Of a stretch of 64,000 bases of DNA, positions 9,464 to 35,529 are shown in pieces. The translations under genes and the position numbers were made by a program. The first letter of the stretch is position 1. Each line of letters starts with the position of its first letter. The DNA comes from Candidatus Levyibacteriota bacterium. Its GTDB lineage: Bacteria > Patescibacteriota > Microgenomatia > Levybacterales > UBA12049. The stretch covers positions 258,209-322,208 of the forward strand of contig JACOXT010000003.1 in NCBI GenBank assembly GCA_016182235.1, in the 5' to 3' direction. The notes below the pieces were generated by a model, which was given only the letters and a program-made list of their open reading frames with translations, did no database searches and was not told where the DNA came from.

Positions 9464-9472
9464 CCCGTTCTA

Positions 9473-9498
9473 GGCTTCGACTGAGCTCAGCCGAAGTC
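9473..9498 (+). terminator. GC-rich palindromic hairpin (GGCTTCGACTGAGCTCAGCCGAAGTC), terminator-like
   Basis: 13-bp arms with one mismatch, centred on GAGCTC, 10 nt after the stop codon. It belongs to the GC-rich hairpin repeat class seen elsewhere in the window. Confidence 0.4.
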
Positions 9499-9530
9499 TT
9501 AACTTAGGGTCATAGTGAACTTGTTGAACT

Positions 9531-10268: not shown

Positions 10269-10299
10269 CTCAAAGCAAATAAATTTCTATGGCAAATGT

Positions 10300-10908: not shown

Positions 10909-10921
10909 AAGTTCTATAACT

Positions 10922-10951
10922 GGCGGTGCTGGAGTTTACCCAGCACCAGCC
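10922..10951 (+). terminator. hairpin terminator candidate after the NUDIX gene
   Basis: GGCGGTGCTGG-AGTTTAC-CCAGCACCAGCC, followed by TTTAGTATTT. Confidence 0.5.
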
Positions 10952-10991
10952 TTTAGTATTTGGCTTAAGGAAATAAAATTAATGTTAAAGC

Positions 10992-14466: not shown

Positions 14467-15345
14467 ATGAAGATTTTGGGGATGGGGTTGAGGGGGCTTG
14501 TGGGATCAAGAATTGTTGAGCGACTTCAAGATAAGTATGAATTTGAATCTTCAGGCGTTGATATAACCAATAAAGACGCAAGTGCTCAAATAAAAGATTC
14601 TAATGCCGCTATAGTCCTTCATTTAGCCGCAAAGACAGATGTGGATGGGTGCGAAAAGGATAAGCCCTTAGGTAGTGAAGGAGAAGCTTGGAGGGTTAAT
14701 GTAGAAGGAACAAGAAATATTGCCGATGCGTGTAGAGAGACTAATAAAAAGTTAATCTATTTTTCAACTGATTTTGTATTTGATGGAACCAAGGACTTTT
14801 ATGTTGAAGATGATACTCCAAACCCGGTAAATTGGTATGCACGGACGAAATATGAAGGAGAAAAAATTGTTCAGAGTCTATCAACGTCTTGGTTAATAAT
14901 TAGAATTGCCTATCCTTATAGAGCAAATTTTAAAAAATTAGATTTCTTCAGAGCAATTCTGAAACGATTACAAAAGGGCGAAAAGGTAAATGCGGTTACC
15001 GATCATATTTTCACGCCAACTTTTATTGATGATATTGTAGTCGCCTTGGACAATTTAATTGAAAATAACTCAACTGGAATTTTTCATGTTGTTGGTAGCC
15101 AAGCTTTGACTCCATTTGAGGTTGCCTCTATTATTTGTAAAACTTTTGGTTACGATCAAAGTCTTATCGTAAGAACTACAAGGTCGGAATTTTTTAAGAA
15201 TAGAGCAACTAGGTCTTTTCAACTACACCTTAGAAATGATAAAATAGCAAGATTAGGTGTAAAAATGAAGACTTTTGAAGAGGGAATTAAGGAGATAAAA
15301 AGACAGATGGAAAATTCGGAATTCAAAATTACAAATACTAAATAA
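14467..15345 (+). CDS. dTDP-4-dehydrorhamnose reductase-like (RmlD family) NAD(P)-dependent reductase
   Basis: 292 aa with RmlD-like organisation (LHLAAKTDVDGCE, YARTKYEGE). TATAAT lies 6 nt upstream of the ATG. Confidence 0.65.
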   Translation: MKILGMGLRGLVGSRIVERLQDKYEFESSGVDITNKDASAQIKDSNAAIVLHLAAKTDVDGCEKDKPLGSEGEAWRVNVEGTRNIADACRETNKKLIYFSTDFVFDGTKDFYVEDDTPNPVNWYARTKYEGEKIVQSLSTSWLIIRIAYPYRANFKKLDFFRAILKRLQKGEKVNAVTDHIFTPTFIDDIVVALDNLIENNSTGIFHVVGSQALTPFEVASIICKTFGYDQSLIVRTTRSEFFKNRATRSFQLHLRNDKIARLGVKMKTFEEGIKEIKRQMENSEFKITNTK

Positions 15346-15359
15346 ATTCTAATCTTCAA

Positions 15360-15409
15360 AATATCAAATTCAAAACGTCTTGAATTTTGGAAATTGTTGA
15401 TTTGATATT
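15360..15409 (+). terminator. long AT-rich imperfect hairpin, terminator candidate
   Basis: AATATCAAAT...ATTTGATATT outer arms with an inner TTCAA/TTGAA pairing, 15 nt after the stop codon. Confidence 0.35.
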
Positions 15410-15449
15410 ATTTGGGATTTGGTGCTTAAGATTTAGCATTTAAATTGTT

Positions 15450-16742
15450 ATGGTTATTACTTTTGTCGGACATGGATACGTTGGGTTAGTTACTGCTTCG
15501 GTCTTTGCTGATTTAGGAAATACTGTTTGGGTTATCGGGCATACCCCAGAGAAGATAGAAAATCTTAAAAAGGGCATACTTCCTATTTATGAGCCAGGAC
15601 TTGAGGAAATTGTTAAAAGAAATGTTAAGGCAGAAAGACTTTTGTTTACTCTTTCTTATAAAGATGCAATTCCAGCTTCAGAAGCGATTTTCATAGCTGT
15701 TGGTACTCCACCCAAAAAAAATGGTGAAGCTGATTTGTCGGTTGTATACGATGTAGCAAAAAAAATAGGAGAAAATTTGCAAGACTATACGGTCGTAGCT
15801 ACAAAAAGCACAGTTCCAGTTGGAACCAATAAAAAAGTAAAGAAGATTATTGAAAGAGCTAAGCCTAAAGGGGTAAGGTTTAACATAGCGTCCATCCCAG
15901 AGTTTTTAAGGGAAGGACAGGCTATTTCTGATACACTCCACCCAGATAGAATTGTGATAGGAACTGATTCAAAAGAAGCAGAAAAAATACTAATTAGACT
16001 ACATAGTCCGATTGACGGCAGTTATGTTTTGACAGATATTGAGACAGCTGAAATGATTAAGTACGCTGCTAATTCTTTTCTGGCAACCAAAATCTCCTTT
16101 GCAAATGCTATTGCTCATCTATCTGAATTAACAGGTGCTGACGGATTGAGGGTTTTGGGGGCGATAGGGCTTGATAAAAGAGTTGGAAGTGAATTTTTGT
16201 TTGCCGGTGCGGGTTATGGAGGAAGCTGTTTTCCAAAAGATGTGAAAGCAATGATCGCGATTGCAAAAAAAGCGGGTTATAACTTTTCTCTCCTTAAAGA
16301 CGTAGAAGCAATTAACCGTGAGGCCATGTTTAGAATCGTTGAAAAATCAAAGAAGCTAGTGGGAGGAAATCTAAAGGATAAAACTATTGGAATACTTGGA
16401 TTATCTTTTAAGCCCAACACCGATGACATGAGAGATGCTCCTTCTATTGTTGTAGTCAATAAGCTATTGGAGGACAATGCGAAAATTAAAGCCTATGATC
16501 CAGTAGCAATGGATAACGCGAAAAATATTTTAAAGAAAGTTGAGTTTCATCCGGATTCCTACTCTGTCGCCAAAGATTGCGACATCTTAATTGTCATGAC
16601 GGAATGGAATGAATTTAGGCAACTTGATTTATTGAGAATAAAAAATTCTATGAAAAAACCAATTCTGCTAGATGGAAGAAATATTTATGAGCCTCAAACG
16701 TTGCGAGAAATGGGATTTATCTACCAGGGAGTTGGACGATGA
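15450..16742 (+). CDS. ugd: UDP-glucose 6-dehydrogenase
   Basis: N-terminal GHGYVGLV Rossmann motif and the catalytic GGSCFPKD motif; 430 aa. Confidence 0.9.
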   Translation: MVITFVGHGYVGLVTASVFADLGNTVWVIGHTPEKIENLKKGILPIYEPGLEEIVKRNVKAERLLFTLSYKDAIPASEAIFIAVGTPPKKNGEADLSVVYDVAKKIGENLQDYTVVATKSTVPVGTNKKVKKIIERAKPKGVRFNIASIPEFLREGQAISDTLHPDRIVIGTDSKEAEKILIRLHSPIDGSYVLTDIETAEMIKYAANSFLATKISFANAIAHLSELTGADGLRVLGAIGLDKRVGSEFLFAGAGYGGSCFPKDVKAMIAIAKKAGYNFSLLKDVEAINREAMFRIVEKSKKLVGGNLKDKTIGILGLSFKPNTDDMRDAPSIVVVNKLLEDNAKIKAYDPVAMDNAKNILKKVEFHPDSYSVAKDCDILIVMTEWNEFRQLDLLRIKNSMKKPILLDGRNIYEPQTLREMGFIYQGVGR

Positions 16743-16869
16743 CCCTCCTTCGTCCCCCTACGTTAAAGCTGCGAGGGGACTACGGAAGGATCATGCTTCC
16801 GAAGCTAAAGTTTTGGAGAAAATTAATTATGATTAAAAAAGATATTTTGGGAAAAAGGAGCGAAGGAGC

Positions 16870-17829
16870 ATGAATAAAGTTCTTATCACTGGAGTGACTG
16901 GATTTGCTGGAAGCTATCTCGCGGAATATTTAGCGAATTTAAAAGAGTATGAAGTTTTTGGAACTTATTTGTTGGAAGAAAGCAAAATAAACATAGATAA
17001 AGTAAGAGATAGAATAAAGTTGATAAAAATAGACTTATCTTCAGAGAACTCCGTTTTCGATCTCATCAAAAAAATTCGTCCCACTTTAATTTTTCATTTG
17101 GCTGCCTTGACTTCACCGGCTGATAGTTTTAAAAACCCAGTAAAAACTATGACGGATAATATAGCGCTTCAAATTAATATTCTGGAGGCAGTCAAAAAGT
17201 ATAATTTACTTAATACTAAAATTTTGATTGTGTCTTCAGCAGATGTTTATGGGTTGGTTAAAAAGAAAGATTTGCCAATGGATGAAGATACGAAATTAGC
17301 TCCAACAAGTCCTTATTCTGTATCCAAAGTAGCTCAGGATTTTTTGGGATTTACATATTATTTATCTTACAATCTTAAAATAGTTAGAGTCAGACCGTTT
17401 AACCATATTGGGCCAAGGCAATCTCCAAATTTTGTAGTGGCGTCATTTGCTAAACAAATTGCAGAGATAGAAAAAAGAAAAAGAAGTAATGTTTTGCGTG
17501 TTGGAAATCTTGAGGCAAAACGAGATTTTACAAATGTGAAAGATATAGTTCGTGCGTATGTATTAGCAATAGATAGAGGAGAAATTGGTGAAGTATATAA
17601 TATTGGGTCTGGTAGGTCTTACAAAATCTCAGATATCCTTGATAGATTGATATCAATGTCAACATCGAAAATAAAAATAGAAAAAGAAGATTCATTAATC
17701 AGACCGAGCGATAATCCGGAGCTATTATGCGACTGTCGCAAATTTGAACGGCTGACCAATTGGCGCCCCGAATTTTCAATTGATGAAACATTAAAAGACA
17801 CGCTAGACTATTGGAGGAATATAATTTAA
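16870..17829 (+). CDS. rmd: GDP-4-dehydro-6-deoxy-D-mannose reductase (Rmd-like SDR)
   Basis: [15 protein letters not shown], and [10 protein letters not shown]...[11 protein letters not shown]...RDFTNVKD...VYNIGSG, matching the pattern I recall for Rmd proteins. It is adjacent to gmd. Confidence 0.65.
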
Positions 17830-17840
17830 AATATTATTTT

Positions 17841-18812
17841 ATGAAAAGAGCCTTAATAACAGGTATTACAGGACAAGATGCATCGTATCTTGCAGAGTTT
17901 TTGCTAAATAAAGGATATAAAGTTTATGGGACTACAAGACGATCGAGTACCATCAATAATGAAAGAATAGAGCATTTACAGGATAAAATTACGATTATTC
18001 AGGGAGATTTGTTGGACCAAAGTTCATTGTCTTCAGCACTTTTAGAAGCAGAACCGGATGAGGTCTATAATTTGGCTGCGCAATCATTCGTTCAAACGTC
18101 ATGGAATCAGCCTGTTTTGACAGGAGAATTTACAGCCTTAGGCGTTACGAGACTTCTAGAGGCGATTAGAGTGGTAAATCCGAAAATAAAGTTTTATCAA
18201 GCATCTTCTTCAGAAATGTTTGGTAAGGTAACAGAGACACCTCAAAAAGAAACTACGCGTTTCCATCCAAGAAGCCCGTATGGTGTTGCAAAAGTTTATG
18301 CCCATTATATAACTGTTAATTATCGAGAAAGCTTTGGTATTTTTGCGTGCTGCGGCATTCTTTTTAACCACGAATCCCCAAGACGAGGAATAGAATTTGT
18401 TACAAGAAAGATTAGTCGCGGTGTTGCCCGCATAAGTTTAGGAAAGCAAAAAAAACTAGAATTAGGAGCCTTAGAGCCCAAACGAGATTGGGGATTTGCC
18501 GGAGATTATGTTGAGGCAATGTGGCTTATGCTTCAGCAGCCTGTAGCTTCAGATTTTGTGGTTGCAACAGGCGAAAATCATAGTGTAAGGGAATTTTTGA
18601 AACTTGCTTTTAAGACGGTCGGAATCGATGATTGGAACAGATATATAATATCGAATAATCCTTCACACATGAGACCCGCAGAAGTTGATTATTTGATTGG
18701 AGATGCAAGCCGCGCTCGTAAAATTTTGGGATGGAGGCCAAAAACGAGTTTCAAAGAACTCGTTGAGATGATGGTTAAGGCTGATCTAGAAATTGAGAAA
18801 AAAGAAAAATAA
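17841..18812 (+). CDS. gmd: GDP-mannose 4,6-dehydratase
   Basis: [22 protein letters not shown] start (internal ATG chosen), then SSEMFG, YGVAK and [10 protein letters not shown]. Confidence 0.9.
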
Positions 18813-18815
18813 TTT

Positions 18816-19787
18816 ATGCAGACGGTATTAGTTGCAGGAGGAGCGGGGTTTATTGGCTCCCATCTATGCAATAGTTTATTGAAAGATAAATATAAAGTTA
18901 TTTGTATAGATAGTTTAATAACAGGGGATAAGAAAAACATTGAACCTCTACTCAAAAACCCAAACTATAAATTTATCCAAGAAGATATTACTAGGCCTTA
19001 TGAAAAATGGTTGTCACCGATAACGAAGAATAGCAGATTGGATTATGTATTTCACTTGGCGAGTCCCGCTTCCCCCAACAAAAAAAGTAAAAAAAGCTAC
19101 ATAAACTATCCAATCGAAACTTTACTTGCGAACTCGTTGGGAACATATAATCTCTTAGAGATGGCTCAAAAGTTTGAATCCAAGTTTTTATATACATCTT
19201 CTTCTGAAATTTATGGAGATCCTGCAATTTCTCCGCAAAAAGAAACATATTTTGGCAATGTTAACCCAAATGGCATACGTTCTGTTTACGACGAAGGGAA
19301 AAGATTTGGCGAGGCAATGACTTTTGGATATGTTAGAAAGTACAATCTGGATGCAAGAATTATTCGTATTTTTAATACTTATGGGCCAATGATGCAGAAA
19401 GATGATGGAAGAGTAGTATCTAATTTTATCAATCAGGCAATAGAAAATACATCTCTTACAATTTATGGTAAAGGAACACAGACTAGAAGCTTTTGTTTTA
19501 TCGATGATATGGTTTTGGGAATAAAAAGAGCAATGTTTTCTTCTCTATCGCGAGGTGAAGTGTTTAATTTGGGCCATACGGAAGAGAAAACAATTTTGGA
19601 GCTAGCTAAGCTTATTAAAAGCCTGACAGATTCCCAATCGGAGATAGAATTTGAAGAATTGCCTGTCGATGATCCGAAGACCAGAAGGCCGGACATTACC
19701 AAAGCAAGAGAAATTTTAGGATGGGAACCAAAAATAACAATAGAAGAAGGTCTTAGGAAAACTGTAGCATATTTTGAAGATTTGTAA
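18816..19787 (+). CDS. uxs: UDP-glucuronate decarboxylase (UDP-xylose synthase)
   Basis: GGAGFIGSHL, YDEGKR, RIFNTYGP...DDGRVVSNF and TRSFCFIDD. Together with ugd this gives a UDP-xylose route. Confidence 0.85.
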   Translation: MQTVLVAGGAGFIGSHLCNSLLKDKYKVICIDSLITGDKKNIEPLLKNPNYKFIQEDITRPYEKWLSPITKNSRLDYVFHLASPASPNKKSKKSYINYPIETLLANSLGTYNLLEMAQKFESKFLYTSSSEIYGDPAISPQKETYFGNVNPNGIRSVYDEGKRFGEAMTFGYVRKYNLDARIIRIFNTYGPMMQKDDGRVVSNFINQAIENTSLTIYGKGTQTRSFCFIDDMVLGIKRAMFSSLSRGEVFNLGHTEEKTILELAKLIKSLTDSQSEIEFEELPVDDPKTRRPDITKAREILGWEPKITIEEGLRKTVAYFEDL

Positions 19788-19793
19788 ATTAAT

Positions 19794-21041
19794 ATGAATA
19801 TTGTTGTTGTTACAGCCACTTATAACGAGAAAGGTAATATAGAGCGGCTTATCGATATTATTGAGACAGAGGTATTCCCAAAAATAAAAAGTCATAAGAT
19901 GCGTCTTCTTGTTGCGGATGACAACTCTCCTGACGGGACGGGAGAAGCAGTAAGAAGACTTATGAAAAAATGGAAAAATCTTAGCATAAACTCTGGAGAG
20001 AAAAAAGGACTAGGTGCTGCTTATCTTCGAGCAATAACTTCTGCGATTGAAGAATTTGACGCAGATGTGATTTTTGAAATAGATGCTGATTTGTCTCATG
20101 ATCCAAAAGAGATCCCGAACTTTCTTAAGAAAATGGAAGATGGATACGATATTGTTACAGGAACACGTTATAGTGAAGGAGGATCAATGCCTGAAAATTG
20201 GCCACTTCACAGAAAAGCATTTTCAGTGATCGGAAATTTATTGGTAAAAATCATTACAGGAAGGTTTTATATCTATGATTGGACGGGAGGATTTAGAGCG
20301 ATTAAAAGGGAAGTCTTTCTTAAAGAAAAAGATAAGCTGATTTCATTTCAGGGATATACATTTCAAGTTGCTTTTCTTTATAAAGCGTTATTAGACGGAT
20401 ATAAGATTGGACATGTCCCCATTCATTTCAAAGACAGAACATTGGGACGATCTAAAATCGCTCCCCTTGAATACATAGTAAATCTTTTAAAGTATGTAAT
20501 TTGGGAGAGAATTTACGAACTTCGACGGTTTATTAAATTTTTGATAGTTGGATCGACAGGATTTATTACCCAGATAGCGACACAAGAAGTAGCTGTTCGA
20601 AGCGGCCTCGCGTATGCGATCTCCTTGATAATAGGCTCAAGTCCGTCATCTCCTATATTAGAAAGAGATATATTGGCGCTCCGAGATGGAATCGGAGGGG
20701 GATTTGGGGCGGAAGCGGCGATTATTTCCAACTTTATGTTCAATAATTTTTGGACATTTAACGATGCAAGAAAACTAAAAGTAAAATCGCCATTTTTTTT
20801 GAGACTTATTAAATTCAATCTGACATCTGTCGCGTCTATATTTATTCAATCTTTTTCAATTTGGTTTTTTGTCCAACTTTTGGGCGTTAATCTTAACATT
20901 GGGGGTTTTACTATTCCGACCCGGCTTGTTGTTGTAGTCCCAACGATTATTTTGTTTGTTATACCGTTAAATTATTTCATTTATAATAAGATAATCTGGA
21001 AAACTCAGTATCTTAGAAATGTAAATGATGCAAAGGTATAG
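19794..21041 (+). CDS. polyprenol-phosphate glycosyltransferase (GT2, DPM1-like) fused to a C-terminal GtrA-like membrane domain
   Basis: N-terminal VVVTATYNE...ADDNSPDGT...EIDADLSH GT2 motifs. The C-terminal ~170 aa has 4 TM segments resembling GtrA. Confidence 0.75.
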   Translation: MNIVVVTATYNEKGNIERLIDIIETEVFPKIKSHKMRLLVADDNSPDGTGEAVRRLMKKWKNLSINSGEKKGLGAAYLRAITSAIEEFDADVIFEIDADLSHDPKEIPNFLKKMEDGYDIVTGTRYSEGGSMPENWPLHRKAFSVIGNLLVKIITGRFYIYDWTGGFRAIKREVFLKEKDKLISFQGYTFQVAFLYKALLDGYKIGHVPIHFKDRTLGRSKIAPLEYIVNLLKYVIWERIYELRRFIKFLIVGSTGFITQIATQEVAVRSGLAYAISLIIGSSPSSPILERDILALRDGIGGGFGAEAAIISNFMFNNFWTFNDARKLKVKSPFFLRLIKFNLTSVASIFIQSFSIWFFVQLLGVNLNIGGFTIPTRLVVVVPTIILFVIPLNYFIYNKIIWKTQYLRNVNDAKV

Positions 21042-22554
21042 GACGCTTATTATTCTTTTGATTCTTCTTTTCATATCTTCCTTTCTTAGGCTTTATAAGA
21101 TAGAGGATTATATGACTTTCTTGGGGGACGAGGGAAGAGATGTTTTGGTTGTTTATAATATTTTGCATGGCGACTTAACTCTTCTTGGTCCGACTGCCTC
21201 CGTTGGAGGATTTTTCTTAGGACCTATTTATTACTATTTCATGGCTCCTTTTTTGTGGCTTTTTAATTATAGCCCTTTGGGGCCAGCCGTAATGGTTGCC
21301 CTTTTTGGAGTCGCGACTGTAATCTTAATATATAAAATTGGAAAAGAATTTTTTTCCACTTCTGTTGGGCTTATCGCGTCGCTTTTCTACGCGGTAGCTC
21401 CTTTAATTATTATCCATTCTAGATCCTCATGGAATCCAAATGTGGTTCCTTTTTTCTCGCTTCTAACTTTGTATACCATATATAAGGCTTTAAATAGAAA
21501 TACTCAGAGACTTTTTATTCTGGGGGGATTTCTGCTTGGGATTACTATGCAACTTCATTATCTTGCGCTTTTTTTGGGGATTATAATTTCTATATATGTT
21601 GTTTTAAGTCGGAGATCATTGTCAAAATCGCTTAAAGATCATATATCTATTTTTATAGGTTTTTTGGTCGGATGGTCTCCATTTTTGGCTTTTGAAGTTC
21701 GCCACGGATTCCCAAACATTATAAGTTTATTTAATTTTGTTTTTCACTCCGGATACACAGGAGGCAATAGTGATTTTTTCAAAATCATCACCGACGTTTC
21801 TTCCAGATTGTTTGGCAGATTAGTTACCAATTTTCCATCACCTGAAAAAATAGAGCTATACACAAAAATGGATATAACAGTGTGGTATTATTTTACGCTT
21901 TTTTTGGGGGTAGCAAGTGTTTTGCTCTTGATTATTAAATGGCACAAAGCCTACAAGGAACATTCATTGGATTTTAGTAAATATAATTTACTGTTAATCT
22001 GGTTAATTGTAGGGGTAGGGCTTTTTGGATTTTATAAAAAGCCTATTTATGATTATTATTTTGGATTCATGTTCCCTCTGCCGTTTTTTATTGTTGGGAT
22101 TTTTCTTGCAAATCTATGGAAGAGTCGGTTTGGGAAAATCTTTAGCCTGTTAATCTTATTATTTATCTTATGGCTTAACTATTTAGGAGTTCCTTATAAA
22201 GCCTCCGCAAATAGACAGCTTCTTCAGACAGAGACTATCTCAAAATTCGTTCTTAGTAAGACGGATAACAAACCTTTTAATTTCGCACTCATAACCGGGG
22301 GAAATTCCGATCATGCATATAGGTATTTTTTTAAGATTTGGGATAGGGATCCAAAGACTATATTAAATCCCGAGAGAGATCCTAAGCGAAAAACAGTTAC
22401 AGACCAGCTATTAATTGTTTGCGAGGTCAGACCTTGTTACCCGCTCGGAAACTCTCTTTGGGAGGTAGCAGGATTTGGAAGAGGGGAAATTGTTGGAGAA
22501 TGGGATGTCTCTGTGGTGAAAGTTTACAAACTTGAGCACTACCAAGAGCCATAA
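21025..22554 (+). CDS. ArnT/PMT-like (GT-C, GT39/83-type) membrane glycosyltransferase
   Basis: Multi-TM, with a first-loop FLGDEGRD acidic motif; 509 aa. Its start overlaps the upstream GT2 gene. Confidence 0.6.
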   Translation: MMQRYRTLIILLILLFISSFLRLYKIEDYMTFLGDEGRDVLVVYNILHGDLTLLGPTASVGGFFLGPIYYYFMAPFLWLFNYSPLGPAVMVALFGVATVILIYKIGKEFFSTSVGLIASLFYAVAPLIIIHSRSSWNPNVVPFFSLLTLYTIYKALNRNTQRLFILGGFLLGITMQLHYLALFLGIIISIYVVLSRRSLSKSLKDHISIFIGFLVGWSPFLAFEVRHGFPNIISLFNFVFHSGYTGGNSDFFKIITDVSSRLFGRLVTNFPSPEKIELYTKMDITVWYYFTLFLGVASVLLLIIKWHKAYKEHSLDFSKYNLLLIWLIVGVGLFGFYKKPIYDYYFGFMFPLPFFIVGIFLANLWKSRFGKIFSLLILLFILWLNYLGVPYKASANRQLLQTETISKFVLSKTDNKPFNFALITGGNSDHAYRYFFKIWDRDPKTILNPERDPKRKTVTDQLLIVCEVRPCYPLGNSLWEVAGFGRGEIVGEWDVSVVKVYKLEHYQEP

Positions 22555-22658
22555 AGTCCCCAGGTGCAATCATAATCCACTCGAGGGTGTAGTCGATAAT
22601 ATTAAGACTATATCTACGCACCTCAAACTATAAGCTATTGTGATATAATACGTAGCCT

Positions 22659-23915
22659 ATGACACAAGAAAGGATGTCTCAGGGTGACACTCAGGAAACA
22701 TTGCGACCAAGGCCATTAACTCATGGTGAGTTTTATCTAGCCATGGTAGAAAGACCTGATCCGAATGGAGTAGGTCTTAGACCTGAATGGAGAAGTTTTT
22801 TTGTAGGACAAGAGAGAGCATATAAACAATTAACCAGTGCTTTAACCGAATCACCTGCTGGCACTGTGGTTGTACTTGCAGAACATTTAGGTACAGGCAA
22901 GGACACCCTAATAGACGTTGTGACTTATGACCTTATTTCTCAGGGGAAGACCAAGAAACAAGATATTCTATATGTCAATTCCAGATTTCATCTTGAAGAA
23001 AATCGAAGTTTTGAAAACATGGTTTTTGAAAGTTTTATGCCATGGCCTAAACCACCAGAAAACTGGCGTGAGTTAAAGCCAAAAATTCTCCTCTTAAAAG
23101 AGTTAGATTATATTTGGGGTTATAGCAAAGAACAGACTAAAGAAGATTTAAGAAGAAAAATAGCAGTTGCTGGCAAGTATTTAGGAAAAGAAGTTGAGAT
23201 ATTAATGTTGGTTGGAGATAAGAATTTATTGGATAGAGAAATAATTGATGTAGCAGGATCTCCATTTGAACCAATTTATATCCCACTTGATCCTCTTACT
23301 CCTGATGTGTTGAAGGAAACTTTACGTCAGCGTTTTGCATATGTGCTAGAACGCTCACCAGAAGAAATAGACGTTGATCCAATGATTGACCCAGACTTTT
23401 TAGCTACTCTTATTCCAAATACTGAATATCCTATTGCTAATATGAGGGGCACATTGGTAATATTTCAAGAGATTGGAAGAAATATAAAACCTACAGAGGA
23501 GTTGGTGCGAATCTCAGTAGAGTTGGTTAAAAAAAACTATGCAGAGGAATTTTATGATATATATTCGCGAGCTGACAAAGAGACACAAGAGCTTTTGCTT
23601 TGGTTAGTAAAACATATCAATGATCATGACAATGGTAAAACCATGATGAGGGCAATGTCTCCTGAAGAAATAATGGAAGCATGCCCCTTGGACTTTGATT
23701 CAAACGAAATAAAAGAAGAAATAATCCACCAACTTATTGAAAGTGTAGGTTTATTAGAAGTGGATCCAATTAAAGGTTTATATCTTCCAAGACAAAAGTT
23801 CTTTTTGATGGCAGCTTCTGTACCTACGCTATCCAAGTCACAAATGGACGCTTTAATATGGAAGAGAAATCAGGCTAAAAGAGAAGAGCAAGAAAGGATA
23901 AGGCGCGATGAATAG
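22659..23915 (+). CDS. hypothetical protein with divergent P-loop/AAA-like motifs (orphan)
   Basis: VVVLAEHLGTGKDTL (Walker-A-like, with D in place of S/T) and ILLLKELDYIW (Walker-B-like). The C-terminal helical region may be a winged helix. I do not recognise a family. Confidence 0.4.
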   Translation: MTQERMSQGDTQETLRPRPLTHGEFYLAMVERPDPNGVGLRPEWRSFFVGQERAYKQLTSALTESPAGTVVVLAEHLGTGKDTLIDVVTYDLISQGKTKKQDILYVNSRFHLEENRSFENMVFESFMPWPKPPENWRELKPKILLLKELDYIWGYSKEQTKEDLRRKIAVAGKYLGKEVEILMLVGDKNLLDREIIDVAGSPFEPIYIPLDPLTPDVLKETLRQRFAYVLERSPEEIDVDPMIDPDFLATLIPNTEYPIANMRGTLVIFQEIGRNIKPTEELVRISVELVKKNYAEEFYDIYSRADKETQELLLWLVKHINDHDNGKTMMRAMSPEEIMEACPLDFDSNEIKEEIIHQLIESVGLLEVDPIKGLYLPRQKFFLMAASVPTLSKSQMDALIWKRNQAKREEQERIRRDE

Positions 23916-25188
23916 AGAAGGTGAAGGATCATTGGCACAATCTCAAGAATCAAACCTCTATCTTCCAGCCAGATTCTTAGAGGGAAGAGGAATGGAGAGG
24001 GGAGCTCTTCCGTTAATGCTTGCGCAAATTGTAAAAGAACTAGATACGTTGCCATTAGTGCGTTCACCAGATGATCTTCCTGAAGAAATAAGGTATTTAC
24101 GAAATTCTAAAGATGGAATTCTTATCATGGTGAGCAGGAGAAGGCCAACATCTATTGGATTTAGCGGGATAACTGAAAGAGAACATATCTATGGTTATTT
24201 TGCTGAAGCTTATGAAGAAGTGAAAGGAATCCCGCAGCATAAGATAAATAATCCCTCTAGAGTTTGGAGTGGAGCATATGAAAGAGTAGACATAAGTGAT
24301 AAAGGAGATTATCGTGATGCTGGCCTTACACCAACAAACTTTATTGAGACTAGAAGACGTTCACTTGGATTATCTATAGAAAGCGATTTAGCTTTATCAG
24401 GAGGAGCAAGGCAATTTCAATTAACAGAAGGTGAGGAAACTGAAGTAATTGAGCAACACAGCATAAGCGAAACAGGAGCTTTAGTAGTCCCGGAAAAACA
24501 AGTCATAGCTAAGCTTTTTGGAGTAGCGAATGAGCAGGCAGAGAAGATGAAGCACATGGGACGAGAGATAAAAGATTTAATTAGAGGACATTTTGCTCCA
24601 ACCAATCAGGGTATATCAACTGAAGTTGGTTTAAATCACCTCGTAGTGACAAGTGGTGAAGAGAAATCTTCGTCGTTCATAGATTTATCTAACAAGTTAG
24701 GGCTTGTACCGCATACAATTCCATTTTGGAAAATGGCAAGTGATTTAGGTCCCTATATCAGGAACATTATAAGAAGAGGTGGAAAGGCTTCTGAAGCATT
24801 TCCTTTAGATAAGATTGAGAACATTGAATTCTATAATTCTGATTCAATTAGATTATTCAGAGAGCAGCATGGTACATATCCATTAGTAGTTACTTTTGAT
24901 ATGAGATCACTGGGTAGAACTGTACACAAAAGAGACATGTCAGATGCAAGGAATCATCTTCTTGGTAATATTAGTGAGGAAGGTATAAAACATCCATTAT
25001 TTGCTATAATTGAAATCAGTGATAATTCAGAAGACATGCCGACTGTTGTGATACGTCAAGGGGCTGGAAGATATTTACTAAAAAGTGAAAATATTGAAGA
25101 TATGCAAGGATTACTTGTAAAAATTGGAGTAGATTACGCACTGACTAAACAAGTTCGTGGATTAAGTGCTTTGGTTTCAGCCCTATGA
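23908..25188 (+). CDS. hypothetical protein (orphan), translationally coupled to the upstream gene
   Basis: 426-aa ORF. Its start overlaps the upstream stop by 8 nt (ATGAATAG). No motif recognised. Confidence 0.45.
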   Translation: MNREGEGSLAQSQESNLYLPARFLEGRGMERGALPLMLAQIVKELDTLPLVRSPDDLPEEIRYLRNSKDGILIMVSRRRPTSIGFSGITEREHIYGYFAEAYEEVKGIPQHKINNPSRVWSGAYERVDISDKGDYRDAGLTPTNFIETRRRSLGLSIESDLALSGGARQFQLTEGEETEVIEQHSISETGALVVPEKQVIAKLFGVANEQAEKMKHMGREIKDLIRGHFAPTNQGISTEVGLNHLVVTSGEEKSSSFIDLSNKLGLVPHTIPFWKMASDLGPYIRNIIRRGGKASEAFPLDKIENIEFYNSDSIRLFREQHGTYPLVVTFDMRSLGRTVHKRDMSDARNHLLGNISEEGIKHPLFAIIEISDNSEDMPTVVIRQGAGRYLLKSENIEDMQGLLVKIGVDYALTKQVRGLSALVSAL

Positions 25189-25217
25189 GATATTATTAAG
25201 GATTAATTAATTTTATT

Positions 25218-25961
25218 ATGACTGATATGACTTTGGAAAATAGAACAAATACAGAAAAATTATTATTTAACCCAGAAGATTATACGTTAAAAGAAATTCT
25301 AAGTCCCAAACATTCAGCTCTACTCGTAGTTGATGTTCAGAATGATTTCTGTGACCCGAAAGGAAAGTTTGCTGGTTGGGGAAGAGATATAAGTCAGATG
25401 CAGGAGATAGTTCCCCATATACAACATTTAATCGATACCGCACATAAAGCTCAAGTTCCAGTTATTTTTACAAGAGGATTCGAAGATGTTAAGTTTCGTA
25501 GCGGCCCTGATTTGAGACGCGCTGTTAGGTGGGAAGAAAAAGATGGCGATGGGAGTGTAAATTCTGAGTCGGGGACTTTTGGATCAGAATTTTATAAGGT
25601 TAAGCCGGAAGAAGGAGATATAGTTGTTGAAAAACATAAATGGTCAGCGTTTGCTGGGAAAGATAGAGATGGAAAAACTCTCCAAGAAATACTTGAAGAA
25701 CTTGGCGTAAAAACTTTGGTAGTAACGGGAGTTGTGGCAGAGACTTGCGTTGAAACAACAGTTAGAGATGCTTATGATAAAAATTATTTTGTAGTTATTC
25801 CAAGAAACAGTGTGGGTTCTAATGACCAAGAACAATTAGAAACAAGGATGAAATATTGGGAAAAAGGTTTTATAGGAGATGCCGTGACAGAAGAAGTTAT
25901 TAGACAAAACTGGCTTGCCAAAGTCCAATCTCCTCAACTTAGCCAAGTTTCAGAACAATAA
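25218..25961 (+). CDS. isochorismatase-family cysteine hydrolase (nicotinamidase-like)
   Basis: Catalytic triad context: LLVVDVQNDF (Asp), EKHKWSAF (Lys), VVAETCVETT (Cys). Confidence 0.8.
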   Translation: MTDMTLENRTNTEKLLFNPEDYTLKEILSPKHSALLVVDVQNDFCDPKGKFAGWGRDISQMQEIVPHIQHLIDTAHKAQVPVIFTRGFEDVKFRSGPDLRRAVRWEEKDGDGSVNSESGTFGSEFYKVKPEEGDIVVEKHKWSAFAGKDRDGKTLQEILEELGVKTLVVTGVVAETCVETTVRDAYDKNYFVVIPRNSVGSNDQEQLETRMKYWEKGFIGDAVTEEVIRQNWLAKVQSPQLSQVSEQ

Positions 25962-25962
25962 G

Positions 25963-25993
25963 AAAAACCCCTACCGCATGGCAGGGGTTTTTG
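25963..25993. terminator. rho-independent terminator, probably bidirectional
   Basis: AAAAACCCCTACC-GCAT-GGCAGGGGTTTTT directly after the stop codon, with an A-run on one side and a T-run on the other. A second palindrome, ATCCTTCGAAGGAT, lies at 26007-26020. Confidence 0.8.
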
Positions 25994-26034
25994 ACTTTAA
26001 AGATTTATCCTTCGAAGGATATTCCTTCCAAATC

Positions 26035-26178
26035 TTAGGACTTACCGATCTTGTACATTCCTGTCCCGCAGACTGGACACTTTCCCTTCATTGCTGGCTT
26101 GCCATTTTTCATGGTTACTGCCTGAGCATTTGGGTCATCTCTTTTTGCTCTGCATTTTACACAATACATCGATGCCAT
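26035..26178 (-). CDS. small zinc-ribbon protein (DUF5679-like), 47 aa, missing from the ORF track
   Basis: GGGAGGTGAAG is followed 6 nt later by the ATG. The translation is MASMYCVKCRAKRDDPNAQAVTMKNGKPAMKGKCPVCGTGMYKIGKS, with CxxC...CxxC. Confidence 0.75.
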   Translation of the reverse strand: MASMYCVKCRAKRDDPNAQAVTMKNGKPAMKGKCPVCGTGMYKIGKS

Positions 26179-26205
26179 ATTTCTGTCTTCACCTCCCTTC
26201 AGTTT

Positions 26206-26475
26206 TCAATAAGTTATATTAGGAAATACAATTATTCGATTTTTCAAAAGAAAGAAGAGAACAATCTGCACACCAATAATAGAAAGAGTTAGAATTCCTG
26301 TTTTTAAAATATCTTGCCTGATATAGGAATACGGTGAAACCGTAATCGCAGTTTGTGATTTTGCTGCCGAAGGTAGATGGATAGAGGGTTGGTCCTTGTT
26401 CTCCAAAGAATAAACAAAATGCTCTCGTCTTATGTCGGCTAATTTTTTTTGTTCTAAAGTTTTGTGTTTAGCCAT
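26206..26475 (-). CDS. small protein with a C-terminal TM segment, unknown function
   Basis: 89-aa ORF directly upstream of, and co-oriented with, the DUF5679-like gene. Confidence 0.5.
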   Translation of the reverse strand: MAKHKTLEQKKLADIRREHFVYSLENKDQPSIHLPSAAKSQTAITVSPYSYIRQDILKTGILTLSIIGVQIVLFFLLKNRIIVFPNITY

Positions 26476-26538: not shown

Positions 26539-27000
26539 ATGGCACCTGATTTTCTCTTTTTAATTCTCGGTGTTATTATTTTATGGCTGGGAGCGCTTTC
26601 TATATTCCTTTGGAGCACAATCTCTCATTACAATAAATTGTCAAAAGGATTAACAGATAAGAGTCTTAAATCCGTGCTTGAGAATCTTTTAAAGAACCTG
26701 ACTAAAAATAAAGAGGATATTGATTATTTAAAATCCTATTGTGATAGAATACATAAAGAGGGATTTTTTCATATCCAAAAAATAGGTCTTATTCGCTTTA
26801 ATCCCTTCAAAGATACAGGAGGCAATCAGAGTTTTATATTGTCAATGGTAGATGGTAATAATACCGGGGTAATAATTTCCGGTCTTTATGCACGTTCCGG
26901 TACCAGATGGTATGCAAAAAAAGTTGTAAAAGGAAAATCCTTAGAACATGAGTTATCAGATGAAGAGAAAATGGCACTTCGTGAAGCAAAGTCTTTATAG
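26539..27000 (+). CDS. DUF4446 family protein
   Basis: N-terminal TM segment plus IGLIRFNPFKDTGGNQSFILSMVD...GLYARSGTRWYAKKV, as I recall for DUF4446. Confidence 0.7.
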   Translation: MAPDFLFLILGVIILWLGALSIFLWSTISHYNKLSKGLTDKSLKSVLENLLKNLTKNKEDIDYLKSYCDRIHKEGFFHIQKIGLIRFNPFKDTGGNQSFILSMVDGNNTGVIISGLYARSGTRWYAKKVVKGKSLEHELSDEEKMALREAKSL

Positions 27001-31841: not shown

Positions 31842-32627
31842 TTATCCTTCCATTCTAGCAAATTGCCCTGTATCTTTGGATTTGCTAAACATGATATTAA
31901 AAAACCAGAGGGAAAGCAGAAAGTAGAAAATGTTCCATCCAAACGCGATTCCAATATTAAGAAAGTCGATAGATGGATTTGTAAGGCTTTCTCTTGCTGC
32001 TTCAAAAACATAAGTAGCAGGAAGTAAATATGCTATTGTCTGAAGAGAATTGGGAAGGACGCTAACTGGAAAAAACATAGCGGTTAAGGGTTGAAAAATA
32101 AAAATGCTTCCCCATGCAAAAGCTTGGATTCTCGTACCATATCTAAATATTAGCCCAAGAATGAAAATTCCAACAGACCAAGCAAAAATAGTAAGGTTGA
32201 TAAAGAAAAAGGATAAATTTAAGATACCCATGCTAAAGACGTTAAATTGAAAAACAAGTAACGAAATAATTGCTACGAACATAAAAATTAAAAGCGCTTT
32301 TATTACTCCAGCCATCATCTCAGCTACGATATACTCTCTTAGCGATAAAGGGGTAATGAACATATTGCTTAGATTCTTAGACCATACATTCCAAAGGCTG
32401 CCAACAGACATAGAATATTGTGTAACTCTAATTATTTCCCAAAGGAGCATTCCCAATAGCAGGTAGCGGCCGGCTTGAGGATTATCCTTTGACAAAAAGA
32501 TAAATACGAATCCAAATACAACTATGTTTATTACTGAAAAATAAAAAAGATCTATAATTACCTCCAGAGAGCGTTTGGTAATATACAATTCCTGAAGAAG
32601 TATTGCTTTAATTATTTGAATTGACAT
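31842..32627 (-). CDS. ABC-2 type transporter permease
   Basis: Six TM segments. I chose the ATG at 32627, which is preceded by AAGGAAAG. It overlaps the end of the ATPase gene. Confidence 0.7.
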   Translation of the reverse strand: MSIQIIKAILLQELYITKRSLEVIIDLFYFSVINIVVFGFVFIFLSKDNPQAGRYLLLGMLLWEIIRVTQYSMSVGSLWNVWSKNLSNMFITPLSLREYIVAEMMAGVIKALLIFMFVAIISLLVFQFNVFSMGILNLSFFFINLTIFAWSVGIFILGLIFRYGTRIQAFAWGSIFIFQPLTAMFFPVSVLPNSLQTIAYLLPATYVFEAARESLTNPSIDFLNIGIAFGWNIFYFLLSLWFFNIMFSKSKDTGQFARMEG

Positions 32628-33546
32628 ATTTATCTTTCCTTGCCATTTGCAGAAAGAAGTCTTCAAGCGTTGGCTTCTTTACTTCAATATCGGTAATCCA
32701 TATCCCACTCTCACCAAGTCCAAAAATAATCTTTGGGATAAATCTCTCTTCAGTACTGATTATTACTAGATTATTATCTGTAAGAGCATACTTTTGATTG
32801 TGGTCTTTCAAATATTTTTTAACAGTATTCTTGTCACCGTCAAATATTAATCTTAGCTGAGTTCTTGATATGCGTTTAGTAAGACCAAGAGGGGAATCTT
32901 CCGCAACGATTCTACCATGATCTAAAAAGATTACCCTATCGCAAACTCTGGTAATCTCGTCCATATTATGGCTTGTGTACAATAAAGATATATTTCTTGA
33001 TTTTTTAAGCATCTCAATTAACGAAAGTGTTTTATCTGCAATATCTGGATCTAAGCTGGCGGTGGGTTCGTCCATGAGGATAATCTCCGGATCATTAATA
33101 AGAGCCTTAATAAGGTTGACTCGGGTTTTTTGCCCTGCAGATAAGTCCCAGTAACGAGTTGAGAGCATATCGGTAATTTCAAAATACTCGACAAAATCCA
33201 TTATTTTTTTTCTTGGATTTTTTACTCTATAAAGATTGGCAAAGACCAGTAAGTTTTCCCAAATAGAGATCCTACCCTGGAGAGTATTAAACGCTGATGC
33301 AAAGTTAACTCTTTGTAGGCAATATCGTCGATTGCTGTATAAATCTTTACCAAAATATTTAATAGTGCCATTAGTAGTCTGAGTAATGCCAAGAAGCATA
33401 TGGATTGTGGTTGTTTTTCCTGCGCCATTTGGTCCAAGAAGGCCTAATACTTCTCCTTTTTTCAAAGAAAAAGAAATATCATGAACTGCAGTGAAATCTT
33501 TAAATTTTTTGGTAAGGTTTCTCACTTCTAAAATCGAATTATCCAT
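32608..33546 (-). CDS. ABC transporter ATP-binding protein
   Basis: Walker A GPNGAGKTT, signature LSAGQKTR, Walker B ILMDEPT. Confidence 0.9.
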   Translation of the reverse strand: MDNSILEVRNLTKKFKDFTAVHDISFSLKKGEVLGLLGPNGAGKTTTIHMLLGITQTTNGTIKYFGKDLYSNRRYCLQRVNFASAFNTLQGRISIWENLLVFANLYRVKNPRKKIMDFVEYFEITDMLSTRYWDLSAGQKTRVNLIKALINDPEIILMDEPTASLDPDIADKTLSLIEMLKKSRNISLLYTSHNMDEITRVCDRVIFLDHGRIVAEDSPLGLTKRISRTQLRLIFDGDKNTVKKYLKDHNQKYALTDNNLVIISTEERFIPKIIFGLGESGIWITDIEVKKPTLEDFFLQMARKDKYVNSNN

Positions 33547-34152: not shown

Positions 34153-35529
34153 TTATCTGAGACTTTTGATTCTTGTTAGCAAATATTCTCGATTATTTTT
34201 TGATAAATCTTCATCGACCTCTTCGAAAAGTTTTTGGAGAATCTCACCAACCTTTGGACTTGGTTTAATATTCAGTTCTCCCATAATATCATTACCGTCA
34301 ATTGCTAAGTCATTGATAGAAAAAGGCAAAGGCTTGAGTTGGTCTTCAATCCGTTTTTTAAAAAGCTTTAGTCTCCAGCTTTCAGCGGTTTGCGTCCCTC
34401 CTCCCAGCCGATCACCGATTCGAAGATCCATCATGTCTTTTACATTTTCCACTCCAACTCTTCGAATAAATCTTCGGATAGCTGCATCTGTTATTTTTTC
34501 ATCAACTGTAAACATATGCCAACGAATAAGATTGACTGTTTTATCTCGGTCCTGCCTAGAGAATTTTAATCTTTCGCAAATAGCTTTTGCAATTCGTGAT
34601 CCTGCGATTTCGTGATTATGAAAAATAACAAATCCTTGTTCGTCAAATCCTCGGACTTTTGGCTTTCCAACATCGTGAAGAAGTGTTGCGAATCGGACAA
34701 CTGGATCTTCTGAGGGGCAAAATCTTAATGATAAAAGATTGTGGGTAAACACATCGTCCACATGATGTCGGCCAGGCCTTGCCTGAGAAATACCGATGCC
34801 TTCAATGATCTCTGGGAGAATAAAAGTTAAAAGACCTGCGTTTTTTAAGAGCATAACGCCTTCATATGGACTGCCGCTCGCCAAAATTCTAAGTAGCTCA
34901 ATACGTATCCTTTCTCCTGAGATATTGGTAATAAGTTTTGCGTCTGAAATTATTTCTTGCCAGGTTTTTTCCTCAATCGTAAAAGAATGATCGGTTGCGA
35001 TTCGAACAGCCCGCATAAGCCGAAGCGCGTCTTCCTTAAACCGTATTTTTGGATCTCCGACAGCACGAACTATTTTTAGTTTGATATCGTTTTGGCCGTT
35101 GTAGGGATCAATTATTTCAAAGTTTTGGGGTTTACCCTGAGCAAATGAAGGGAGTTGAAGGGCTATTGCATTTATGGTAAAATCGCGGCGGGCGAGGTCT
35201 TCTTCAATTGACTTTCCCCACCGAACAGAATCTGGTCTTCTTCTATCGCTGTAACCCTTTTCAGTCCTGAACGTAGTTATTTCTACGACCATTTTCTTAT
35301 TTCCAACTTCTATTGGGATTCCAACTGTTCCAAATTTATTATCGTAAAAACCATCAAGAAAAAGTTCTAAGATTTGTTCAGGCGTTGCATTTGTAGTCAT
35401 ATCCCAGTCCTTTACTGGTTTTTTAAGAAGTAAATTGCGGACGCATCCTCCAACTAAATATACGTCAAAACCAGCGTTTACAAATTTTTTATAAACAGCA
35501 ATAATTTCTTCTGGAATATGCTTAGTCAT
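34153..35529 (-). CDS. cca: CCA-adding enzyme (tRNA nucleotidyltransferase with HD domain)
   Basis: GGCVRNLLL and DWD in the N-terminal PolyA_pol head; HD domain (LLHDVGKP). Confidence 0.85.
   Translation of the reverse strand: MTKHIPEEIIAVYKKFVNAGFDVYLVGGCVRNLLLKKPVKDWDMTTNATPEQILELFLDGFYDNKFGTVGIPIEVGNKKMVVEITTFRTEKGYSDRRRPDSVRWGKSIEEDLARRDFTINAIALQLPSFAQGKPQNFEIIDPYNGQNDIKLKIVRAVGDPKIRFKEDALRLMRAVRIATDHSFTIEEKTWQEIISDAKLITNISGERIRIELLRILASGSPYEGVMLLKNAGLLTFILPEIIEGIGISQARPGRHHVDDVFTHNLLSLRFCPSEDPVVRFATLLHDVGKPKVRGFDEQGFVIFHNHEIAGSRIAKAICERLKFSRQDRDKTVNLIRWHMFTVDEKITDAAIRRFIRRVGVENVKDMMDLRIGDRLGGGTQTAESWRLKLFKKRIEDQLKPLPFSINDLAIDGNDIMGELNIKPSPKVGEILQKLFEEVDEDLSKNNREYLLTRIKSLR

Follow-up and report, generated by a model that had tools for sequence, protein, structure and literature searches.

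The question raised by three consecutive plus-strand genes in a 64,000-nucleotide stretch of DNA (contig JACOXT010000003.1 of assembly GCA_016182235.1; this whole stretch is referred to as the window) is whether they belong together and what they might do for their host. Exact protein matches assigned the window to a Candidatus Levybacteria metagenome-assembled genome (MAG) from the Candidate Phyla Radiation (CPR), which accounts for a large part of bacterial diversity and whose accessory biology is almost unknown. Gene A (HYT07_01815; 22659–23915, 418 aa) and gene B (HYT07_01820; 23908–25188, 426 aa) are annotated as hypothetical proteins, and gene C (25218–25961, 247 aa) belongs to the isochorismatase family (Pfam PF00857). 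An earlier interpretation made from the letters of this DNA, here called the sequence-only reading, had described the three genes as one operon, of suspected foreign origin, with a layout seen in accessory systems such as conflict or defense modules. All sequence features listed in it were found at the positions that it gave. Our comparison of homologous loci shows that A and B form a rare gene pair, which was found only in Microgenomates-type CPR bacteria and is carried by a small set of ultra-small bacteria from groundwater. The third gene is exchangeable, and an accessory conflict or defense-type function of the pair, together with its third gene, is our leading guess, which we hold tentatively.

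The A–B gene pair, its third gene, and its genomic slots

Gene B directly followed gene A in all 12 distinct A-carrying loci, and the A–B part of the proposed operon was thus upheld by the conservation of the gene neighborhood. The trio as such was not. When the gene after B was surveyed in 15 distinct loci, an isochorismatase ortholog was the commonest neighbor (6 of 15), located after B on the same strand in the window, L004/L005, L021, and L018 (L numbers denote the homologous loci) and convergent to B in L008 and L024. The other loci contained a GGCT-like protein of 175–187 aa (L007, L009/L010, and L013), a GNAT protein (L001–L003, L019, and L020, followed by EamA in the latter two), or an EamA transporter (L012). 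Judged by this gene order, the conserved unit is the A–B pair and not the trio, with the third position being a swappable slot. All three genes do occur together outside the window, namely as A–B–isochorismatase in L004 and L021.

The isochorismatases next to B belong to one orthologous group (37–86% identity) with an N-terminal extension in common. Their identity to the window protein was 59% where that of B was 62%, 44% where B had 41%, and 41% where B had 46%. This divergence roughly tracks that of B and hence indicates a real but non-obligatory link. The ortholog adjoins B in either orientation, at B identities between 62% and 24%, and this adjacency recurs in four genomic contexts unrelated to each other.

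Both families are small. Only 18 members of the A family were detected among 5.8 billion proteins, even by profile search, and B had 23 close homologs, with 44 clusters retrieved among 1.84 billion representatives in an exhaustive hidden Markov model search. A scan of 185,579 species-representative genomes from GTDB recovered one locus only. One member of the B family is annotated as Candidatus Daviesbacteria, which means that the B superfamily spans the Microgenomates. Pairwise dN/dS values of 0.14–0.26 for A, 0.08–0.23 for B, and 0.07–0.13 for the isochorismatase indicate that A and B are real genes under purifying selection. B appears to be older than the pair and the better conserved component. 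All three distant B-like genes that were looked up lack an upstream A; they are located between DUF2127 and ColicinV/CAP-PGK genes (L022), facing a convergent HAD hydrolase gene (L023), and between the gene of release factor RF-1 and a convergent isochorismatase gene (L024).

Comparisons between close relatives revealed a precise turnover at these sites. L008 and L024 share flanks with 81–83% nucleotide identity, which comprise RF-1 on one side and the isochorismatase (84% protein identity) plus a MerR/GyrI-like regulator on the other. In between, L008 contains a 3.5-kb block of a helix-turn-helix (HTH) gene, A, and B (2877–6377), whereas the same slot in L024 (139–1490) is occupied by a 1.35-kb B-like gene, 24% identical, and nothing else. 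L019 and L020 resemble L008 in A–B (79–83% nucleotide identity) and carry GNAT-EamA in place of the isochorismatase and five further genes of L008. The window and L009 are collinear from position 14.4 kb as far as the B stop codon, and the collinearity resumes at the DUF5679 gene, with a precise exchange of the third gene alone in between. At the level of gene order, these results show that A–B sits in recombination-prone slots and is subject to cassette swaps between close relatives, and thus represents an accessory module.

Several contexts of the pair contain genes of mobile or immune type. In L004 (1–7924) and L021 (1–5182), integrative-element-like genes are located divergently upstream of A–B–isochorismatase and encode a serine recombinase, Prim-Pol/PriCT_1, a Terminase_2-type HTH protein, and Fic. 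The central part of the element is not the same in L004 and L021, the serine recombinases are 90% identical, and the block from Terminase_2 through A–B–isochorismatase is 79% identical. The A–B–isochorismatase block of these loci therefore seems to lie beside or inside an integrative element. The MAG containing L004 is labeled 'uncultured Gammaproteobacteria', yet its genes resemble those of the Levybacteria window, and it may be mis-binned. A Fic gene is also found near A–B in L007, and a zinc-ribbon/HTH transposase-like gene lies upstream of the pair in L002. The minus strand of L001 encodes, two genes downstream of an A–B–GNAT-like block, a 1164-aa protein (7547–11041) that combines HEAT repeats with a TIR domain at its C-terminus. 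TIR domains are typical of immune NADases, and this gene may mark a defense neighborhood in L001.

In the window, L007, L009/L010, and L013, A–B occupies one and the same chromosomal position, with genes for PMT_2 and GT2-GtrA glycosyltransferases upstream and for DUF5679, DUF4446, DUF3048, a 191-aa protein, and SecD downstream. Between the window and these syntenic loci, the flanking proteins are 50–85% identical, A is 50–52% identical, and B is 62–63% identical. Since A and B have diverged about as far as their syntenic flanks, the pair has resided in, and diverged with, the chromosome in this clade. This does not agree with the foreign origin that the sequence-only reading had suspected from a higher G+C content and a lower content of Lys, Ile, and Asn than in the neighboring glycosyltransferase genes. 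The direction of both shifts was correct. Compared to the 62 open reading frames (ORFs) of the window, A, B, and C had G+C contents of 0.372, 0.378, and 0.374, respectively (window 0.357 ± 0.023), and K+I+N fractions of 0.16–0.17 (window 0.22 ± 0.037). However, the G+C excess is located at codon position 1 (GC1 0.50–0.54; window 0.448 ± 0.049), and the GC3 values of 0.278, 0.242, and 0.239 are host-like (window 0.290 ± 0.039). Hence, the compositional difference is one of amino-acid content and not a sign of foreign DNA, and a foreign origin is not supported by composition. The contrast reflects acidic soluble proteins encoded beside membrane glycosyltransferases and not a different mutational history.

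A 20-nt direct repeat with 18 of 20 positions matching brackets the operon (22635–22654, CTATTGTGATATAATACGTA; 26736–26755, CTATTGTGATAGAATACATA). Its first copy contains the promoter of A and its second copy lies within the conserved DUF4446 gene. As the sole candidate for an insertion with flanking direct repeats, it has to be seen against ~0.1 chance matches expected (a rough estimate, not computed by a tool) and is probably a coincidence; an insertion of this kind was rejected.

Predicted folds and conserved motifs of the three proteins

An AlphaFold model of A, built from 14 sequences (pLDDT 72, pTM 0.72), comprises a five-stranded P-loop core, a helical lid, a winged helix (approximately residues 307–377), and a long C-terminal helix. 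In a Foldseek search of the PDB, the best matches were ORC1/Cdc6 chains (7jpo_A, 2.5e-6; 2qby_A, 3.4e-6; 1fnn_A, 1.9e-5). Alignments to such chains extended over ~400 columns, i.e., the full length including the winged helix, with E = 2.5e-6 to 1e-4 and a probability of 1.0. The TM-scores were only 0.31–0.40, low values being expected for multi-domain proteins with differing domain orientation. STAND proteins (Dark, CED-4, NRC2/4, NLRP, and G10) were matched at 4e-5 to 1e-3, and RFC clamp-loader subunits were found as well. The profiles of Pfam, NCBIfam, PADLOC, and PHROGs yielded no match to the A protein of the window. Weak sub-threshold hits were scattered across the A family (nSTAND1 in 7 of 18 members, AAA_16 in 5 of 18 with a best value of 6.8e-5, plus KAP_NTPase, ATPase_2, NACHT, and nSTAND3/6), and an A profile run against PDB sequences matched only the P-loop segment of ABC ATPases. 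Taken together, the predicted structure of A is that of an AAA+ ATPase of ORC/Cdc6- or STAND-like type, including lid and winged helix, and its motifs are degenerate but conserved. This is in line with the ORC/Cdc6- or STAND-type likeness which the sequence-only reading had seen in its C-terminus. Two further segments, FVGQERxxxxL upstream of the P-loop and I-x-I-x-L-D-P-L-T...L...L..R after strand 5, resemble sequence motifs of Cdc6.

The deviating Walker motifs that had been proposed for A are present as G78-T-G-K81-D82 (22890–22904) and ILLLKELD (residues 143–150; 23085–23108), and the deviations are conserved in the family. The Walker A consensus of the family is [AG]PFGAGKD, in which Asp replaces Ser/Thr; there is no variation at G78, G80, and K81, and almost none at D82. 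The window protein reads EHLGTGKD, with Glu at the first position. Walker B follows the pattern hhhh[N/K/D]E, most members having Asn or Lys instead of the usual Asp. K142 is invariant, L144 is invariant in alignment A1 and nearly so once the most distant relative, P0041 (28% identity), is added (alignment A5), and E148 is nearly invariant in alignment A1 only. As P0041 has canonical GAGKS and IEEFD motifs, the GKD state of the A family is derived. Between strands 4 and 5, G200-S201-P202 (23256–23264) occupies the place of the arginine finger (box VII Ser-Arg, before strand 5) according to our own motif comparison by eye, which is not a structural superposition. All 18 sequences share S201 and P202, G200 is fully conserved only in the alignment of 14 sequences and nearly so otherwise, and the family alignments contain no conserved Arg or Lys within residues 187–205. 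By this placement the arginine finger would be lost, with Pro in its stead, and we infer that A may be a switch that binds nucleotide, with classical hydrolysis being slight or absent. The invariant H323-D324 was considered as a STAND-type 'MHD' histidine and was not used as such, because it is located at the start of the winged helix and not at its end.

Conservation is distributed unevenly over A. An N-terminal peptide (residues 17–55) is highly conserved, with a column conservation of 86–90% over residues 21–60, and so is the core. Hypervariability is found in four blocks, namely the insert that follows strand 2, alignment columns 300–330, the winged helix, and the tail at the C-terminus. 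In some pairs, the A proteins are 80–90% identical in one half and <35% identical in blocks of the other half, and the A proteins of L009 and L007 share 58% identity compared to 81% for the adjoining B proteins. A thus seems to evolve as a mosaic. In the model, the insert contains helices 108–111 and 118–125 between strands 103–107 and 143–149; it has a pLDDT of 57–69 and is the most variable block of the family. In complexes of Orc1/Cdc6 with DNA (2qby-type), the protein touches the DNA through its winged helix and the insert that follows strand 2. As these DNA-contacting elements correspond to variable blocks of A, the variable blocks are plausibly a recognition surface. The window protein is an outlier of its family, being 46–50% identical to all other members and having the lowest profile score of the close group. 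At its C-terminal end (23790–23915) it lacks ~55 residues, including a conserved YGW motif, that all close homologs carry before a conserved acidic/basic tail, and it may represent a relaxed or remodeled copy.

Nothing had been recognized in the second protein by the sequence-only reading, and B remained an orphan when searched as a whole, by domain, and via its distant relatives. Its model, built from 21 sequences (pLDDT 70, pTM 0.72), consists of an N-terminal beta-rich domain (~17–155), an acidic disordered linker (157–205), a long helix (197–228), an alpha/beta domain (243–391), and a long, strongly conserved C-terminal helix (396–425). Fold searches gave no significant match in the PDB (best E = 0.03) or BFVD (best E = 0.02); weak hits to CheY-receiver and Rad51 folds involved the C-terminal alpha/beta domain only and allow no assignment. 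The B protein of the window matched none of the profiles of Pfam, NCBIfam, PADLOC, and PHROGs, nor did 36 diverse members of its family match those of Pfam and PHROGs. Ten separate N- or C-terminal domain fragments searched against Pfam at E ≤ 10 produced just two isolated weak hits (OKR_DC_1_N, 0.08; RNA_pol_RpbG, 0.13). B profiles run against PDB sequences gave no hit (A2 profile) or hits at chance level (A3 profile, best E = 0.43). Neither A nor B could thus be placed in a housekeeping family by profile searches.

Sixteen positions of B (Y63, R78, G96, F98, E100, P142, Q234, G265, D331, F365, G387, Y389, K405, D409, T413, and R417) are conserved in 83–100% of the superfamily, all except R78 in ≥89%. 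The invariant polar residues among them (Y63, R78, E100, Q234, D331, Y389, K405, D409, T413, and R417) suggest a catalytic or ligand-binding site; a structural role would be just as conceivable for K405-D409-T413-R417, an i/i+4 stripe along the last helix. A-linked B proteins share residues 272–300 (WKM..P[YF][IV]R..IR.GGKASE.FPLD), and shorter B-like proteins lack this segment, which is a candidate for the contact with A.

Gene C matched Pfam Isochorismatase PF00857 with E = 4.3e-37, and the hydrolase family and intact Asp-Lys-Cys triad that had been read from its sequence were both confirmed. D39, K139, and C177 align with the Asp, Lys, and Cys of E. coli RutB (PDB match 4.6e-15), where they are numbered D24/K133/C166, and PDB entry 8bln, a D-to-N mutant with Asn at the Asp position, supports the assignment of the Asp. 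Among solved structures, RutB, cysteine hydrolases, BiuH, and CSHase come closest (1e-15 to 1e-12). In NCBIfam, C matched RutB (7e-21) and BiuH (8e-19), with scores far below every equivalog cut-off (RutB 75 vs. 378 bits). C is an isochorismatase-family cysteine amidohydrolase of the RutB, biuret hydrolase, or N-carbamoylsarcosine amidase type. It was rejected as a nicotinamidase of the PncA type, as PRK11609 reached 41.6 bits against a cut-off of 174 and there is no His in the expected metal-site segment; C has TRGFED where PncA carries the His motif of its Asp/His/His metal site. The N-terminal extension FNPEDYxLKEIL of C is conserved and common only to orthologs adjoining B. The GGCT-like protein that takes the place of C in L007, L009, and L013 matched Pfam AIG2_2 (E = 0.03–0.18) and human GGCT in the PDB (E = 0.2) only weakly, and its N-terminal LYFGYGANS resembles the YGSL-type motif of GGCT.

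Functional readings of the pair

The defense-type reading draws its contextual support from the cassette swaps, the integrative-element neighbors, and the TIR and Fic neighbors, and is also based on the fold and motifs of A, the coupling and adjacency of A and B with their conserved expression signals, the rarity of the pair, the mosaic evolution of A, and the precedent of BREX. Defense systems such as BREX are known to be built on ATPases of the ORC/Cdc6 clade and on inactive STAND modules as scaffolds (PMC12839542). According to this reading, A and B would form a stoichiometric complex. Having kept the P-loop lysine and exchanged the Walker A Thr for Asp, the Walker B Asp for Asn or Lys, and the arginine finger for Pro, A would act as a conformational nucleotide-binding switch and not as a fast ATPase. 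Its hypervariable insert, winged helix, and C-terminal tail would be the surface that recognizes a cue, either a nucleic acid or a protein, B would be the output of the module, and the swappable third gene would process, detoxify, or export a small molecule with an amine or amide group, the substrate or product of B. A more specific version, in which A–B is an undescribed, CPR-restricted immune or conflict system whose GKD switch A, lacking an arginine finger, senses invader nucleic acid by its hypervariable insert and winged helix and controls B as an effector with a new fold, while the third gene tunes or neutralizes the amine- or amide-bearing molecule of B, appears doubtful to us.

Known systems resemble the pair in parts only. 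With the ORC/Cdc6-clade AAA+ proteins (archaeal Orc1/Cdc6; BrxC/BrxD of BREX), A shares the predicted AAA+ core, helical lid, and C-terminal winged helix, and its predicted helices between strands 2 and 3, a low-confidence region, are in the place of the helical insert of this clade. It differs from them in that the window protein matches no Pfam or NCBIfam family, its relatives reaching AAA_16, ATPase_2, and nSTAND below threshold only; in the lack of canonical GxxxxGK[ST] and hhhhDE motifs, of which the lysine and the glutamate are conserved; in the Ser-Pro at the arginine-finger position placed by eye; and in the low TM-scores. Furthermore, A has no established role in replication and, at 418–488 aa, lacks the extra domains of BrxC. 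STAND NTPases (NB-ARC, NACHT, and nSTAND proteins such as Apaf-1/CED-4 and Avs/NLR-like proteins; inactive BrxB) show the same module of nucleotide-binding domain, helical domain, and winged helix that is predicted for A, and the loss of the arginine finger, the switch-like motif set, and the variable accessory context of A are also reminiscent of them. In contrast to these proteins, A ends soon after the winged helix and no C-terminal TPR, WD40, or LRR sensor or fused effector was found in it, all profile hits of its family are below the curated thresholds, and B is a separate protein unlike known effector families. RADAR, outlined as a defense system of an AAA+ ATPase (RdrA) plus an enzyme (RdrB; PMC9994260), offers an analogy in layout only. 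There too an ATPase gene lies beside that of a second large protein, with optional accessory genes that vary by locus, whereas A and B have no PADLOC hit and no sequence or fold relation to RdrA–RdrB, and B contains no deaminase or other recognized catalytic domain. Gene C shares PF00857 and the aligned triad with RutB, BiuH, and N-carbamoylsarcosine amidase and is set apart from them by scores far below the equivalog cut-offs and by its own N-terminal extension. Our literature search found no paper linking an isochorismatase with ORC/STAND ATPases in defense or conflict systems.

The accessory, conflict, or defense layout that had been proposed for the three genes gains some support from their context, and a number of observations weigh against it. 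No match was found for A, B, or C in PADLOC-DB 2.0 at E ≤ 1, and A and B were not found in the viral contigs of IMG/VR, GenBank phages, or the plasmids of PLSDB. B contains no recognizable toxic or nuclease domain. The single chromosomal position in the window and three relatives, the flank-like divergence, and the host-like codon usage look like long vertical residence. The link to the third gene is statistical and not obligatory, and the neighbors of the pair (isochorismatase, GNAT, GGCT-like, EamA, NUDIX, and HAD) appear metabolic. In addition, the models of A and B have only moderate confidence (pLDDT 70–72) and are based on shallow alignments, and the binding of DNA and of nucleotides by A and its complex with B are inferred.

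Many of these observations would fit a lineage-specific operon for the salvage or detoxification of a small molecule, which we regard as possible and nearly as likely as defense. B would then be an enzyme acting on an amine or amide metabolite, the genes in the third slot would encode neighboring steps, and A would be an ATP-binding regulator or assembly factor, possibly a winged-helix transcription factor. Such a function is consistent with the third-slot genes all encoding small-molecule enzymes or an exporter, with the isochorismatase, HAD, and PGK genes adjoining the A-less B-like genes, with the persistence of the isochorismatase beside B down to 24% B identity and in both orientations, and with the many invariant polar residues of B. 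It would also explain the long chromosomal residence of the pair, which is reflected in host-like codon usage, flank-like divergence, and strong purifying selection, as well as the lack of a signal in the defense, phage, and plasmid databases. It is harder to reconcile with the extreme rarity of the pair despite the many public Levybacteria genomes, the cassette-level replacement between close relatives, the mosaic and hypervariable nature of A, the one context beside integrative-element genes, and the fact that no third gene is obligatory. Moreover, to our knowledge ORC/STAND-type NTPases are not the usual partners of metabolic enzymes.

Two other explanations fit the data worse. If A were an ORC/Cdc6-like initiator or loader acting at the origin of an integrative mobile element, with B as its partner, the full-length fold match to ORC1/Cdc6 including the winged helix would be expected, and so would the serine recombinase, Prim-Pol/PriCT, and Terminase_2-type genes adjoining the block in L004 and L021 (90% identity for the recombinase, 79% for A–B–isochorismatase) and the transposase-like zinc-ribbon/HTH gene in L002. 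We consider this unlikely, because no element genes flank the pair in the window, L007, L009, or L013, no flanking repeats were found beyond the one 18/20 match near chance expectation, and the pair is absent from the viral and plasmid collections. The lost arginine finger and the degenerate Walker motifs also argue against an initiator, the element already has its own Prim-Pol, and B-like genes occur alone at chromosomal sites. Even less probable, and in our view very unlikely, is that the three genes are chance neighbors, or A and B spurious or decaying ORFs, without a joint function. Unrelated genes are packed tightly in CPR genomes, the third gene can be replaced, and the A protein of the window is a family outlier with Glu at the first Walker A position and ~55 residues missing, all of which would suit such an explanation. 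It fails to account for the adjacency of A and B in all 12 A loci with stop and start codons overlapping or nearly abutting, the dN/dS values of 0.08–0.26, the conserved promoter and start position, the subfamily segment 272–300 shared by A-linked B proteins, and the recurrence of an isochorismatase ortholog beside B in four unrelated contexts. The remaining probability falls to functions that we have not thought of.

The pair joins a new, catalytically altered branch of the ORC/Cdc6–STAND proteins to a family that current sequence and fold searches cannot place. If the defense or conflict reading is true, both the fold of the effector and the type of ATPase switch would be new; if the pair is metabolic, it would represent an unrecognized small-molecule pathway in organisms thought to be minimal in metabolism. 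In either case, the clean cassette swaps between close relatives provide a tractable example of accessory-module turnover in very small genomes, and the conserved change from Ser/Thr to Asp in Walker A offers a natural experiment that is useful for studying the P-loop mechanism.

Expression signals and surrounding genes

The promoter-like sequence that had been reported upstream of A is a perfect extended −10 box on the plus strand (TGATATAAT, 22641–22649, as read from the sequence), which is followed by 9 nt and then by the ATG of A at 22659, with no Shine-Dalgarno sequence before this start. It was missed by a consensus promoter scan, as there is no match to a −35 box. A TGnTATAAT box ends 9–10 nt before the ATG of A in all nine homologous loci for which upstream sequence was available, which implies that the transcript of A is probably leaderless or near-leaderless and that this arrangement is conserved across loci. 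The layout is ordinary for this genome, with at least 12 other window genes having a −10 box at the same distance.

A TGnTAnAAT-type −10 box starts 12–17 nt before the start codon in at least 12 of 61 window genes, for example at the starts 8322, 14467, and 50010 and in the minus-strand genes 32608–33546, 34153–35529, and 44201–45367, and recognizable Shine-Dalgarno sequences are rare. Many first-in-operon genes of this Levybacteria genome thus seem to be expressed as leaderless mRNAs.

The 8-nt overlap of the 418-aa and 426-aa ORFs was exact (ATGAATAG, 23908–23915, plus strand), and a Shine-Dalgarno-like AAGGA is located inside the 3' end of A ahead of the start of B. Relatives have kept the overlapping or abutting junction: among 10 loci, 6 had an overlap of 8–20 nt and 4 had a gap of 2–6 nt, and a Shine-Dalgarno-like AAGGAG lies within the 3' end of A at most of the A/B junctions examined. 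In terms of these sequence signals, A and B are shown to form a leaderless operon with translational coupling. Gene C follows B after a spacer of 29 nt. The terminator that had been assumed to close the unit was found as a G+C-rich hairpin of 13 bp with A- and T-runs on either side (25963–25992), which begins 1 base past the stop codon of C and is a bidirectional intrinsic terminator. It was scored on the minus strand; on the plus strand it has one A-C mismatch, followed by TTTTT. An Rfam scan of the operon region detected no RNA element.

Convergent to the operon, and sharing the terminator hairpin with it, is a 47-aa zinc-ribbon gene on the minus strand (MASMYCVKCRAK...CPVCGTGMYKIGKS, 26035–26178). 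This gene is below the 60-aa limit of the ORF list and is the counterpart of the DUF5679 gene called in L007. A plus-strand ORF of 125 aa (25915–26292), which overlaps the zinc-ribbon gene, has a GC3 of 0.46 compared to 0.29 for the genome and is probably spurious. Upstream of the operon (14467–22554), the window contains a cell-envelope glycosylation cluster encoding NAD-dependent epimerases/dehydratases, a UDP-glucose/GDP-mannose dehydrogenase, GT2-GtrA, and a PMT_2 glycosyltransferase, which is collinear with L009 at 68–73% nucleotide identity.

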